Source: Escherichia phage vB_EcoS_ESCO41. From it: 50,800 nucleotides of DNA. Shown in pieces: positions 7,289 through 50,703 of this stretch (positions are counted from its first letter, which is position 1; each line of letters begins with the position of its first letter). The translations under genes were made by a program, and so were the position numbers. The notes under the pieces are model-generated. The model saw nothing but the letters and a program-made list of their open reading frames with translations, searched no databases and was not told the DNA's origin. The stretch lies in the sequence record NC_047820.1. The stretch is one strand, 5' to 3'.

Positions 7289-7366
7289 GCTCCGCTAGCT
7301 CAATTGGAAAGAAGCAACGACCTTCTAAGTCGTAGGTTACTGGTTCGAACCCAGTGCGGAGCGCCA
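7289..7366 (+). tRNA. tRNA-Arg (anticodon UCU)
   Basis: Acceptor GCTCCGC/GCGGAGC, anticodon stem ACGAC/GTCGT with loop CTTCTAA, T-arm ACTGG-TTCGAAC-CCAGT, encoded CCA; D-arm irregular. Confidence 0.75.
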
Positions 7367-18168: not shown

Positions 18169-18843
18169 ATGGCACTTCCTAACGGTTCCCAAATCTTTAT
18201 TGAGCAGACCCGAGCAGCCACCGAAATCGAAGCAACCGCAGTGAGTAACGCGGAAAATCCGGTGGCGACTGTTGCGTCAACCACTGGCATTGTGAAAGGC
18301 GATTACGTCCTGGTGCTGGAAAGCGTATGGGCTGCATTTAAAAATCGCGTAATGCGAGTGAAAGAAGTAACCCTGGACGCATCAATCACGCTTGAAGGCG
18401 ACAAGAACACTTCCACGGCTGACCTTAACAAGTTCCCCGCTGGCGGCGCTTCCACCTTCGTTAAGATCGAAAGCTGGATTGAGATTCCATGCGTGAGCGA
18501 CATTGCAAAATCTGGCGGCGAGCAGCAGTTCTATACCAAGCAGTGCCTATCAGATGACCGAGAGAAGCAGATTCCGACCTTTAAATCTGCGACGTCCATC
18601 GCGTATACGTTCGACTTCGACTACTCCAACCCAATCACTCAGCTTCTGATTGGTTACGACGAAGACGGCAAGACGCGAGCTATGCGAATGTTCGTACCGA
18701 AGGCAAGCTATCCGATCCGCACCTTCTCTGGTACTCCATCTTTCGATGACATCCCTAACACGGTGATGAACGAAGATGAAACGACCATCCTGACCATCTC
18801 ACTTGATGGCAAATACACGCACATGAAAGAGTTTGTTGCGTAA
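18169..18843 (+). CDS. putative major tail protein
   Basis: 224-aa ORF with strong RBS AAGGAG, immediately before chaperone and tape-measure genes; terminator follows. Confidence 0.55.
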   Translation: MALPNGSQIFIEQTRAATEIEATAVSNAENPVATVASTTGIVKGDYVLVLESVWAAFKNRVMRVKEVTLDASITLEGDKNTSTADLNKFPAGGASTFVKIESWIEIPCVSDIAKSGGEQQFYTKQCLSDDREKQIPTFKSATSIAYTFDFDYSNPITQLLIGYDEDGKTRAMRMFVPKASYPIRTFSGTPSFDDIPNTVMNEDETTILTISLDGKYTHMKEFVA

Positions 18844-18849
18844 TGCAAA

Positions 18850-18872
18850 GGGGGCTATTGCCCCCCTTTTTC
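18850..18872 (+). terminator. rho-independent terminator
   Basis: GGGGGC-tatt-GCCCCC followed by T-run. Confidence 0.7.
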
Positions 18873-18917
18873 TATTTGTGATTTAATGTCACCAATTCAA
18901 ACAAAGAGGAAAACACC

Positions 18918-19235
18918 ATGAGCTTTAAAGTAACCCTATCAGAACGCCTACCAGACTTCCAATTGCCAGTTAAATTTGTATTACCGAACGGCGTGGAGGC
19001 TACATTTGCATTCACCGTCAAGGCGCTAACGTCATCCGAACTTAACGCTACGCTGAAAAATGCAGAAAAACAGACTGGCGCTCAGTTTGTAAAATCCCTG
19101 GCTAGTGGGTGGGAACTTGAGGACGAGTTCAATGATGAAAACATCAACAAGCTGGTTGACAGTTACCCTGCCGTTGTTGGTGGCCTTATCTCAACCTACA
19201 CTCAAGCGTTGGCTGGCTACCGAGTAAAAAACTAA
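18918..19235 (+). CDS. tail assembly chaperone (lambda G-like)
   Basis: 105-aa ORF directly upstream of tape measure, ending at slippery site A_AAA_AAC. Confidence 0.65.
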   Translation: MSFKVTLSERLPDFQLPVKFVLPNGVEATFAFTVKALTSSELNATLKNAEKQTGAQFVKSLASGWELEDEFNDENINKLVDSYPAVVGGLISTYTQALAGYRVKN

Positions 19236-19546
19236 AACGGGCGGTCGAGCTACTATTCAGGCGAACGCCCACCGACTCAGAATTAGAGGCATACGGATTA
19301 ACCCGTGAAGACTACGAAAACGAAGATCCTGAAATATTGCAGTTCGACGAGGAAACATACCAGTCATGGGAAGTATTCACCGCGATGCAAACTCAATGGA
19401 GATCTGCAGGAGCCGGAGCTTACGGGCTTGACTATAATGTCTTGCCTATGCTATTTCGAATCTATAAAATAGATTGTGAAGAAATGGCCTTAAATGATGT
19501 GCGTGTGATGGAAGCGGAAGCTCTTAAGCAAATGCACAAAAAATAA
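18918..19546 (+). CDS. tail assembly chaperone -1 frameshift product (lambda GT-like); shift at AAAAAAC 19226-19232
   Basis: The -1 frame stays open from 19232 to 19546 (I read every codon); heptamer is 3 nt before the zero-frame stop. Confidence 0.55.
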
Positions 19547-19547
19547 T

Positions 19548-19569
19548 AGCGCCTACGGGCGCTTTTTTC
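19548..19569 (+). terminator. hairpin plus T-run (possible attenuator)
   Basis: AGCGCC-tacg-GGCGCT followed by T6. Confidence 0.5.
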
Positions 19570-19582
19570 GTATGGGGGTTTT

Positions 19583-22489
19583 ATGACAGATAAATTTGCA
19601 GGGCTATCGCTTGGCGTTGACGTTTCCCAGGTTGACAGGGCGGTCAAGTCTCTTGATGAGCTGGCAAGCGCTAACAATAACGCAGGCAAGAGCTTCGACA
19701 ACTTCATTAATGCTGAGCAAGTCGCAAAGCAAAAAATGAAAGATTTAAACAACGAGGTCAAGCGCCAGAAGAAGGAGTTCTCTGAGGTAGAAAAGGTCAT
19801 CGACCCTACAGCGAACAAGATGCGCCAGCTGCAACAAGCAAGTGTAGATCTGGATAAACTCTGGAGTAAGGGCATGGTCCCTGATAAGGAGTTTTTTAAT
19901 CTTTCAAGCATGATTGAGACTCAGATTAACGCGCTTAATCGTTCGAAACTGGCTATGACCGAAGAGGGTCGGGCGGCACTGGAGAACTCAAAGGCAAAGG
20001 CCGCAGCAAAGAACAGTGCTGACTCATTCCTTAAGTCATTAAGGGATCAGGCGAACGCGGCTACCATGACAAAGCAGGAGCTATTGGAGCTGAGAGCCGC
20101 TGAGCTTGGCGTGACAGCTCAGGCCGCTCCATTTATCGCTGCAATGAACAAGCAGGCAAAGGCTACAAACGTAGCAGGGCTTTCTGTTGGTGAATACAAA
20201 AACGCAATGCGTATGCTACCAGCTCAGATAACTGACGTGGTTACTTCTCTTGCGTCAGGTATGCCTGTGTGGTTGGTTGCTGTTCAGCAGGGTGGGCAGA
20301 TCAAGGATTCATTCGGCGGCGTAGGAAATACGTTCAAAGTTCTGCTTTCATACCTGAACCCAGTAACCGTTGGGATGACTGCGATGGGTATTGCTCTTGC
20401 TGGCCTGGCAAAAGCTGGTTATGACTCCTACCGTTACATTACTGATATGCAAAACGCCTTGATTGAAACTGGTGGATTTTCAGCGGCTACCGCAGCTGAC
20501 CTTGATGCGATAGCAACAAAGATTGCTGACACCAGTAACGCGACTATCGGATCTGTTCGAGATATTGCTACTGAGCTTGCAAAGAGCGGGAAGTACACCC
20601 AGGACCAAATCAGGATTATTACTCGCGCCACTGCTGAATGGTCAGCCGCGACGGGTCGGGCAGCGAGCGATATTATCAGTGACTTTAGTAAGATTGCAGG
20701 TGATCCCGTAAAGGGTCTGGCAAAACTGAATGAGCAGTACAACTTCCTTGAAAAAGGACAGTTAACCTACATTAACGGAATCGCAAAGACTAGGGGAGAA
20801 ACCGAAGCAGTAACGGAAGCAACGAAATTATTTGCTGATGTCATGGAAGAAAGAATGAGCAAGATTGCAGGAACGGCGACACCACTTGAAAAGATGTGGA
20901 ATGACATTAAGAAATGGTCGTCTGATGCTTGGGGATGGGTTGGAGATCACACGCTAGGCGCACTAAACCTAATTATTGATGTGGTTAGCGGAACGGTAAT
21001 TCAGGTCAAGATGATTCTCGCCAAAGGTGATGAATACATTTCTAACTTTATCGCGTCGGCAATCAAGGCAACACAGTCTCTGCCTTTCGCAGAAGATTTC
21101 GGTAAGGACATTCTCGCAGGGCAGGAGAAGATCGCATCTGAGTCGAAAGCGACTTACGATGGACTTGCGAAAGATCTTGATGAGATTAACGCCAGGGTAG
21201 AAAAGGGAGAAATGGGGTACGTTAACGCCCTGAAGGAGCGGAGAGATCTTGAGAAGCAATACAGCAAAGAAACGAAGGACGCTGTAGAGAAAGAGGCAAA
21301 GGCCATTGAGGAAGCCAACAGGAAAAAGGGGGGCGCCAGGATAACAAAAGGGGCAACAGAACAGCTTGATAAAGAGCTTTACGTTCTCAAAGCCCAGCTT
21401 AAAACATTGCAAGAGCACACGTCTATTAACGACAAGATCTCAAGCCAGAGGAAAGCGCTATGGTCAACAGAAGCTCAGATCGCAATTCTGCAGGAGGCTC
21501 AGAGCAAACGCAAACTGACAAATGAGGAAAAGGCATTGCTCACCAGTCAGCAAAAGGTTCTCTCGCTAGCGAAGGAAAAGGCTGAAATTGGTGATCAGAT
21601 TGTTGCCCAGGAGAGAATAAACAAGCTGAATGATGATTCAATGAAGTTTATCATGCAGATGGACGCAGCCAGCAAGTCTCTGAACGAGACGAGGTCTATG
21701 GGTACTCGTGAAGCTGAAAGACAGCTTCAGCTTGAGAGAATTAAAGCTGATTACATGGCTAAAGGCGGCGGGGAGGATGACCAGGCGCTGAATAATATGC
21801 TTGATAAGCAGAAGGAGTATTATGCACAAGAGGATCAGCTTCGTGGAGATTGGCTGGCTGGTGCGCAGAAAGCATTTGCGGACTACGGAGATAGCGCAAC
21901 GGATATGTACGGAAACGTATATGACATCGCAACTAACTCCCTGAACGGTTTGTCAGACATGATGACTGAGTTCCTGATGACGGGGCAAGCTAACTTCGCA
22001 GACTTTGCAAAGAGCATTATCAGCCAGATCATTAAGATGATCACTCAGATGGTAATCTTCAACTCAATCTCTGGAATGATGGGCGGCTCGGCTGGCGGCA
22101 AGGGGTTCTCCTTCGCTAACTCAGGATGGTTCGCTACTGGCGGGTACACTGGCGACGGTGGAAAATATGAGCCTGCTGGAACAGTACACAAAGGTGAGTT
22201 TGTCATGACCAAGGAAGCGACAAAGCGAATTGGAGTCGATAACCTTTATCGAATGATGCGCGGTTATGCGAATGGCGGGATGGTTGGTGGAACTTCAAGC
22301 GGAGGCGGCGGCGCTGCAATCATGGCTGGCGGCGTGACAATTGGAAGCATCCCTGTTAGCATCAATAACGGTAGCGATCCGAAGGGTATGGAGCAAGGCG
22401 TGAAAATGATTTTCAAGCAAATGATTCAGGAATCATGCTCCCAGGGTGGCGAAGTTTACAATTACATCAACGGAAAAGCAGGAGCGTAA
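19583..22489 (+). CDS. tail tape measure protein
   Basis: 968 aa, Ala/Lys/Glu-rich helical sequence, Gly-rich C-terminal region, downstream of chaperone pair. Confidence 0.85.
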
Positions 22490-28929: not shown

Positions 28930-29886
28930 TTAATACATGTTTGGGGTAAAAGGAAGTGCCATTGATATGTTTGTATCGAATGGAAATTGAGCACCTGATT
29001 GCGTTGAGTAGTTACCAATTACAGTTCCTGGGGCTGCTCTAACATTTCCACCTGACATACATATTCCCTTATACCTAAGATTGTTGTAACCTCCTGTCAC
29101 TCTTGTTGTTGCTCCACATCTAAGTATAGGAAAGAACCCACCAACATATTGCCAGTTGTTATTGATCTGAATGAACCCACCAAGGACAAATGGCCTCCTC
29201 ACACTTGAGAACACTATCTGCCCGGCGGGATTGCTCATTGTAATGCCAGGGCCAGCTGGCGGTGGTGAGTTGTTGAATATAACCAGATTCACATATGCAC
29301 TTGCCGCAACATCATCTGTACCTCCGTAGTTTATATCCCTACACCATATCGTTGAACCATCTGATTCAAGTGATACGTTTGGGTTATCCCACATGCCAAA
29401 AGGTATTCCAGGAACCGGAAGGCTTGCTGCACCGTTAACTTGCAAACCACCTACGTACGCCGCACTCATCAATCTCGCGTTGTTTGGTATGGCTGTAAAG
29501 TTCGTTGAGTTCTCTACAAGCAACCCCTGATTTCCAGCTGTAGCAGGTAGTATCTCAAAACAACTGCCGTAGAATCTTAATAGTCTACCATTCGAACCAT
29601 TGAAATTTCCGATCCCAATGCGCCCTACAGAATCGTTAACCTTTGAGAAGCTATTGAGGAAGTAGACCTCTGGAACAACATCAAAATCATCAACATACAC
29701 AGCCTGGCTTGGTAGGCAAAAAGCTGTTGAACCAGGTGTCATTGCCAATCCGAAGTCCCATGTTGAGTTAGCAGAATCAAACCCGTCAGCCTGAATTGCA
29801 CCTGACACGGCTGGCGCTCTTAATCCAGCCGTTATCTGCATAGGAGGTCTTCCGTCATTCAAGTCTATAAATATACCCTGAGGCAT
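28930..29886 (-). CDS. hypothetical Gly/Asn-rich protein (possible fibre or receptor-interaction protein); start ATG 29886
   Basis: 318 aa; RBS AAGGAG 7 nt upstream; TAATG overlap with the lipoprotein gene. Confidence 0.5.
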   Translation of the reverse strand: MPQGIFIDLNDGRPPMQITAGLRAPAVSGAIQADGFDSANSTWDFGLAMTPGSTAFCLPSQAVYVDDFDVVPEVYFLNSFSKVNDSVGRIGIGNFNGSNGRLLRFYGSCFEILPATAGNQGLLVENSTNFTAIPNNARLMSAAYVGGLQVNGAASLPVPGIPFGMWDNPNVSLESDGSTIWCRDINYGGTDDVAASAYVNLVIFNNSPPPAGPGITMSNPAGQIVFSSVRRPFVLGGFIQINNNWQYVGGFFPILRCGATTRVTGGYNNLRYKGICMSGGNVRAAPGTVIGNYSTQSGAQFPFDTNISMALPFTPNMY

Positions 29887-30128
29887 TATTTCCACTCCTT
29901 ACTACCGTGATCTGCAACGGAGCCGCCGTAACCTCCGCCATTGGCCTTAATTCCATCGTAGCGCACGTCAACTTCTCCAGCCGGCACAACCACACCATTT
30001 TTCCATTTAGCCACGCACACTCCGTTTGATTGCGTTGCACACCAACCATCAGGGCGAGGACCAGAAGAACAACCTACCATCATGATTGCTGCTGCGGCGA
30101 TGATTGAAAGTTTGATTAAGTTAGTCAT
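29886..30128 (-). CDS. small lipoprotein, Cor-like superinfection-exclusion candidate
   Basis: Signal peptide plus lipobox MVGC in [22 protein letters not shown]; about 80 aa; adjacent to tail-fibre genes as cor is in FhuA-dependent phages. Confidence 0.45.
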
Positions 30129-50271: not shown

Positions 50272-50703
50272 TTAACGATTTTTTGGTGGTCGTTTATAGT
50301 GAGAATAAAACGGCGTTGGCGGAAAGCATGGCTGATAACCAGTCAGGTTCTGACGTGCCGCTTTACCGAGCGCAACAGCCGCATTTTGCTGAACTCTGGC
50401 AATCTCACCATTGCGGAACAACCGCTCTTTACTGAACCGTCGCCCCATGAACTCAACGGCAAGGTAGTCAATAGGATCTAGCGCCACGCGTTTTTCCATG
50501 AATACCTTTCGGCTTGATGCCAGGAATACTTTGCTGCCTTTCTTGCCGACTGCTGAGCGAATAAGTCTATAGGTTGAATCGACGAACTGGTAATAGAAGC
50601 GCCATGCTCCATAGGACCACACATACATCCGGCCTGACGGAGTAATGAATCTGGTCTTGCCGTCAGCAATGCCCTTATAGATAACTCCGTAAACAATGCT
50701 CAT
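50272..50703 (-). CDS. hypothetical protein (143 aa)
   Basis: ORF with RBS AAGGAGAAATAA. Confidence 0.5.
   Translation of the reverse strand: MSIVYGVIYKGIADGKTRFITPSGRMYVWSYGAWRFYYQFVDSTYRLIRSAVGKKGSKVFLASSRKVFMEKRVALDPIDYLAVEFMGRRFSKERLFRNGEIARVQQNAAVALGKAARQNLTGYQPCFPPTPFYSHYKRPPKNR

Follow-up and report, generated by a model that had tools for sequence, protein, structure and literature searches.

The window analysed here, a stretch of 50,800 nucleotides from Escherichia phage vB_EcoS_ESCO41 (NC_047820.1) that corresponds to the IMG/VR contig IMGVR_UViG_2974610512_000001, belongs to a T1-like E. coli siphophage of the family Drexlerviridae, and its tail module is collinear with that of phage T1. 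Pfam and PHROG assignments give the gene order tail completion protein, tail terminator, tube, G, T and tape measure, of which the portion from tail terminator to tape measure runs collinear with T1 gp42 to gp38. The nearest relatives, the E. coli siphophages TH21, vB_EcoM-p111 and vB-EcoS-XT34, share about 94% DNA identity with the window over positions 18169–19600 and annotate the G and T ORFs as two separate hypothetical proteins.

The upstream neighbour is the major tail (tube) protein gene at 18169–18843 (+), recognized by the Pfam family Phage_tail_3 (1.4e-47) and by phrog_584 (major tail protein) and collinear with T1 gp41. It is followed by the G ORF at 18918–19235 (+), which starts with ATG and encodes a tail assembly (tape measure) chaperone of 105 residues and 11.5 kDa. 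Residues 1–105 of G align with profile positions 1–124 of 124 in PF08748 (Phage_TAC_4) with an E-value of 1.4e-23 and 83.9 bits against a gathering cut-off of 21.1, and the protein also falls into phrog_569. A Shine-Dalgarno-like GAGG lies at 18906–18909 (+), 8 nt 5' of the ATG, as read directly from the sequence aaagaggaaaacaccATG. The downstream neighbour at 19583–22489 (+) encodes a tape measure protein of 968 residues (TMP_2, 1.1e-65; Tape_meas_lam_C, 3.8e-23; phrog_24).

A consensus scan placed a terminator-like GC hairpin followed by a T run at 18850–18865 (+), in the gap between the tube gene and G, and a second terminator-like hairpin with a T run at 19548–19563 (+), between T and the tape measure gene. 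T1 has a terminator annotated equivalently to the first (18770–18796) and another corresponding to the second (19508–19527), the latter also being annotated at the same place in Klebsiella phage Sin4. These two elements bracket the G and T frames and, as leaky terminators, may lower expression stepwise from the tube protein through the chaperone to the tape measure protein.

The slip site and its conservation

The G frame ends in the codons CGA GTA AAA AAC TAA AAC GGG, in which the heptamer A_AAA_AAC occupies 19226–19232 (+) in the X_XXY_YYZ phase of G. The codon AAC at 19230–19232 is both the last codon of the heptamer and the last sense codon of G, and the stop codon TAA at 19233–19235 (+) adjoins it directly and is possibly part of the recoding signal. 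This heptamer is the only phased one in the stretch where G and the -1 frame overlap (19160–19235). The initial annotation had correctly put A_AAA_AAC at 19226–19232 of a G-like ORF, but its spacing of 3 nt before the stop is incorrect, since the heptamer abuts the TAA. It had likewise stated that the -1 frame continues open to 19546, as we also find, for another 105 codons, a figure that is reached only by counting the stop codon together with the 104 sense codons.

None of the parts of this site is exceptional when taken singly. The string AAAAAAC occurs six times on the + strand of the window, where about six occurrences are expected, and at least 100 open -1 codons follow the stop in 13 of 74 crude genes of the window, in most cases through overlap with the following gene. 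The frequency of phased XXXYYYZ heptamers is 0.003 per codon. The combination of a terminal phased heptamer with a long startless -1 ORF is found only at G among the 74 crude genes. Two other crude genes, at 28930–29895 (-) and 50272–50703 (-), carry phased heptamers near their 3' ends (CCCAAAC and AAAAAAT), with -1 extensions of 34 and 6 codons, respectively, and these are probably due to chance. The decisive support for the site is its comparative conservation.

The ten bases AAAAAACTAA, comprising the heptamer and the TAA, are invariant in all 27 close relatives compared, which share 63–83% identity in T and include T1, Hafnia phage Pocis76, tunus, Ec_L1 and Dhillonvirus, whereas the flanking sequences diverge. 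A tblastn search with the conceptual 209-residue fusion of G and T returned 1155 phage records, at least 80% of the query being covered in 1009 of them, and the full-length matches among those listed each consisted of two pieces, as expected from two reading frames. More distant relatives, at roughly 30–55% identity, keep the two-frame layout with either G_GGA_AAC or A_AAA_AAC, as illustrated by Pseudomonas phage phiPMW, Stenotrophomonas phage SBP4phi2, Acinetobacter phage Silvergun, Vibrio phage Marilyn and a Ralstonia phage, in which G_GGA_AAC is combined with TAA, TGA or TAG.

The distant relatives were sampled as 80 IMG/VR loci (L039–L118) with a DUF1799-type T, which correspond to 50 distinct junctions. 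A phased heptamer is present in 45 of these and ends exactly at the stop codon in 44 (29 with G_GGA_AAC and 15 with A_AAA_AAC), as it does in 27/27 close relatives, while the remaining one lies one codon before the stop; the other five junctions (L056, L071, L112, L114 and L118) were left unparsed by the junction script. Over all 50 junctions the stop is TGA in 35, TAA in 14 and TAG in one. None of the heptamers reported by the scan of the 50 distant junctions had AAT as its last codon, and AAT in this position would likewise preserve the leucine that follows. A slip site positioned one codon before the stop was found in Sin4, phiKp_7-1, ATCEA23 and locus L115. In Sin4 (L027, 707–718) the sequence is gcA_AAA_Gtt TAA, without a canonical heptamer, and the CDS is nevertheless joined in GenBank; a slip at this site would have to be a single-tRNA shift on A_AAA. 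Sin4 was the one member examined of the large Webervirus group, to which 435 Klebsiella records belong by tblastn. Both phiKp_7-1 and ATCEA23 have a non-canonical cA_AAG one codon 5' of the stop. Programs that detect such frameshifts automatically could profit from the family-wide rule by which an AAC immediately followed by the stop codon closes the slip site.

Candidate stimulatory elements on either side of the heptamer were less persuasive. The minimum free energy fold contains a candidate weak hairpin at 19239–19270 (+), beginning 6 nt past the heptamer, in which GGGCG (19239–19243) pairs with CGCCC (19266–19270). The stem comprises 5–6 bp and its single-sequence fold score is not significant (z = -1.49). 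Across the relatives 81% of the cells pair and two pairs are compensatory, with three sequences (L017, L018 and L022) breaking the stem, and RNAalifold predicted no consensus structure downstream of the slip site in the relatives. The conservation of the stem is in any case confounded because its arms are coding, one for a conserved Arg-Ala and the other for a conserved Pro-Pro. An upstream Shine-Dalgarno-like stimulator of the dnaX type was considered and rejected: the anti-Shine-Dalgarno duplex of -3.3 kcal/mol is within the background (mean -1.8, 10th percentile -5.9 kcal/mol) and inconsistent across 30 relatives. An Rfam scan of the window gave no frameshift element, its single match being a tRNA elsewhere. 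At the level of sequence and predicted folding, then, no convincing stimulatory RNA element was found at the G/T junction. The tRNA is a tRNA-Arg gene (anticodon TCT) at 7289–7366 (+), found by both Rfam and ARAGORN, and it has no connection with the Lys and Asn codons at which the slip would occur; by contrast, none is reported in the genome note of the T1-like phage U136B.

The T segment and the predicted fusion

The open stretch of the -1 frame extends from 19160 to 19546. The T segment as it would be read after a slip occupies 19232–19546 (+), with 104 sense codons at 19232–19543 followed by a stop at 19544–19546. Its translation matches PF08809 (DUF1799) with an E-value of 3.4e-14 and 53.3 bits against a cut-off of 26, residues 22–101 of T aligning with profile positions 2–80 of 80, and it is also matched by phrog_680. 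In phrog_17368, a single profile of 213 positions, G aligns with positions 4–107 and T with positions 109–211. Joined conceptually, with C19232 read twice, the two segments give a GT fusion of 209 residues and 23.8 kDa.

A search for ATG, GTG and TTG in the T frame between 19160 and 19336 found none. The first in-frame start is the TTG at 19337, which is codon 36 of T, and the first ATG, at 19385, is codon 52. The 35 codons that precede the TTG are under purifying selection, with a pooled pN/pS of 0.39 between the window and its relatives. Synonymous differences in adjacent T-frame codons, pooled over the same comparison, are near saturation at about 0.73 per site, and against this divergence the ten bases of the slip site and stop stay unchanged. 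The residues LKRAV immediately after the slip are invariant in all Drexlerviridae relatives examined. As far as the sequence tells, T could not be made in full from a start of its own.

Protein databases reflect the same division. A search with the fusion as query spanned 1.84 billion cluster representatives, and in the 150 representatives compared G-type proteins end at query residue 105, whereas T-type proteins are fragments with called starts scattered over query residues 99–157, the pattern left when gene callers guess at a start codon that is not there. A word-indexed protein search with the fusion returned three matches only, all of them T-only. Two sequences at first resembled natural fusions and were set aside. 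The protein P0022 (L038, 173–793; ENA contig NODE_101157) carries Phage_TAC_4 and DUF1799 in one ORF without a frame break, and it looks like a deletion of the G end and slip site (...VYL-LRAAV...) in a contig whose 2.6x coverage is too low to rely on. P0118 spans the junction and later loses the frame, and looks like the product of a sequencing error.

Modelled with AlphaFold2 from 17 homologous conceptual fusions, GT gives a confident structure (pLDDT 88, pTM 0.74), in which one continuous helix is predicted from residue 85 to residue 113, running across the junction at 105/106. Its best match in BFVD is the 210-residue fused 'tape measure chaperone' of Klebsiella phage Solomon, with a TM score of 0.90, and other matches include the fused chaperones of Scapp, Shivani, Loki and CcrColossus. 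No relative of either the G or the T half was found in the PDB by sequence or by fold.

Proposed mechanism and alternative readings

We consider it about 90% probable that the locus uses a programmed -1 ribosomal frameshift of the lambda G/GT type and yields an 11.5 kDa G and a 23.8 kDa GT. Most ribosomes would terminate at the TAA and produce abundant G of 105 residues, while a small fraction would slip by -1 on A_AAA_AAC as they decode AAA AAC, the tRNA-Lys moving from AAA to AAA and the tRNA-Asn from AAC to AAA. The slipped ribosomes would miss the TAA, read CUA from 19232 and go on for 104 codons, giving the junction ...YRVKN-LKRAVE.... The peptide expected across this junction after Glu-C digestion is NINKLVDSYPAVVGGLISTYTQALAGYRVKNLKRAVE, whereas trypsin would give only NLK. 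The G/GT arrangement that the initial annotation had proposed for the tail chaperone gene agrees with the phased site, the gene order, the domains of both halves, the startless T and the conservation; its wording that the arrangement was confirmed directly from the sequence was too strong, as the fusion protein itself, like its low abundance, is something that we infer.

The -1 frameshift between gpG and gpGT of lambda was described by Levin et al. 1993 and by Xu et al. 2004 and 2013, as cited in PMC5009743. [quoted passage not shown] With the definition of a G/GT pair taken from Xu et al. 2004, the present locus resembles lambda in having two overlapping ORFs between the major tail and tape measure genes, a phased X_XXY_YYZ heptamer near the end of G, a -1 ORF without a start, and an expected short abundant and rare long product. 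By analogy with lambda, the G part would bind the tape measure protein and the T part, with its DUF1799 domain, would recruit the tail tube protein; these roles are assigned by analogy because neither half has a relative in the PDB. A low GT:G ratio from a weakly slippery site is, by the same analogy, probably needed for correct tail assembly.

The pair in the window and that of lambda also differ. A Pfam scan at E ≤ 0.01 returned PF08748 and PF08809 only and none of the lambda G or T families, and on sequence grounds the pair is analogous to the lambda pair and not a member of its families. The lambda slip site is G_GGA_AAG, and unlike in lambda the A_AAA_AAC of ESCO41 adjoins the stop codon. 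The E. coli dnaX cassette, in which frameshifting is efficient at about 50%, combines A_AAA_AAG with an upstream Shine-Dalgarno-like element and a downstream hairpin. The window shares with it an A-rich heptamer, decoding by tRNA-Lys and an E. coli host, but its final codon is AAC and not AAG and it is without the upstream element, and a low frameshift efficiency is expected, unlike that of dnaX. In E. coli A_AAA_AAC is much less shift-prone than A_AAA_AAG (PMC5009743). The yield of GT could for this reason be very low, and a weak slip site accords with a long product that has to be rare.

That the stop codon adjoins the heptamer almost everywhere suggests that pausing at termination may help the slip, and a variant of the mechanism with the same product is possible, though less likely than not, in which the peptidyl-tRNA-Asn sits on AAC in the P site, the TAA in the A site is decoded slowly and this lone tRNA slips to AAA. 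Such a 'shifty stop' accords with the heptamer remaining at the stop in nearly all junctions while the stop itself varies among TAA, TGA and TAG, and with the finding of no other stimulator, and stop-adjacent shift sites are an established concept (Weiss et al. 1987, cited in PMC5009743). On the other hand, the first three bases of the heptamer (AAA or GGG) are kept as well, which tandem slippage needs and a pure P-site model does not; the adjacency could merely reflect the invariant leucine codon (CTR) that opens T; and the sites of Sin4, phiKp_7-1, ATCEA23 and L115 are displaced by a codon. Slippage of one or of two tRNAs would give the same protein, and the two are indistinguishable from sequence alone. 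By way of speculation, X_XXA_AAC and the adjacent stop might form a fixed ten-base recoding unit across the Phage_TAC_4/DUF1799 chaperones, in which slow termination aids a weak slip on the Asn codon and so sets the ratio of G to GT. If that were true, RNA structure would not be required, although in the T1 group the weak downstream hairpin could contribute as well. The adjacency rule in any event raises the question of whether the stop codon helps to set the frameshift efficiency.

Three other explanations dispense with ribosomal frameshifting. The six A residues at 19226–19231 could allow RNA polymerase to add one A, giving the junction ...VKK-LKR..., although the runs on which slippage is efficient in bacteria are longer than six. 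Fusions of this kind are known to arise by transcriptional slippage as well (PMC5009743), but this route is very unlikely here because most distant homologues (29 of 50 junctions) use GGGAAAC, which has three A and no long homopolymer, is incompatible with polymerase slippage and fits ribosomal slippage instead. It is scarcely credible that T is translated separately, with no fusion, from the internal TTG at 19337 or ATG at 19385. T1 gp39 and several relatives are annotated in this manner and gene callers have produced many T-only proteins; however, the starts called in those relatives are arbitrary, the first 35 codons of T are startless and yet conserved as protein, the DUF1799 match begins upstream of both candidate starts, sequence reading gives no clear Shine-Dalgarno element before TTG 19337, and the invariance of the slip site would be left unexplained. 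A sequencing or assembly error, or a pseudogene in which the true gene runs continuously from G into T, might be suspected from the 811-bp metagenome contig that encodes P0022, a continuous protein of 206 residues, but the same break, heptamer and stop recur in more than a thousand phage genomes sequenced independently of one another, and this explanation is effectively refuted.

Prior annotation of the chaperone family

Frameshifting in this chaperone family is already known, and the window provides one more textbook instance of it. Across the fusion the window is about 53–68% identical to the chaperones of the Drexlerviridae T1, Pocis76, Sin4, Skenny, Solomon and U136B, all of them direct homologues with the same genome position, and T1 and Pocis76 have an identical AAAAAAC-TAA. 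For the T1-like phages Skenny, Solomon and U136B the frameshift appears in published genome notes, and our search of the literature for experimental detection of a GT fusion in any Drexlerviridae (T1-like) phage returned prediction-level statements only. Acinetobacter phage Loki likewise has AAAAAAC directly next to the chaperone stop in gp12/gp13, as a prediction (PMC5313236), and is a structural match in BFVD, but it infects a distant host and is only 15% identical.

The value of the present case lies mainly in annotation, the locus being best recorded as one chaperone gene with a ribosomal-slippage product, GT, joined from 18918–19232 and 19232–19546. GenBank already joins the G and T ORFs into one CDS in Hafnia phage Pocis76 and Klebsiella phage Sin4. 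The type phage has an annotation gap at this point: the T1 RefSeq record NC_005833 (L025, 18872–19506) lists gp40 and a truncated gp39 of 55 residues that begins at an internal ATG, each under the name 'tail length tape measure protein', with AAAAAAC-TAA present at 19180–19189.
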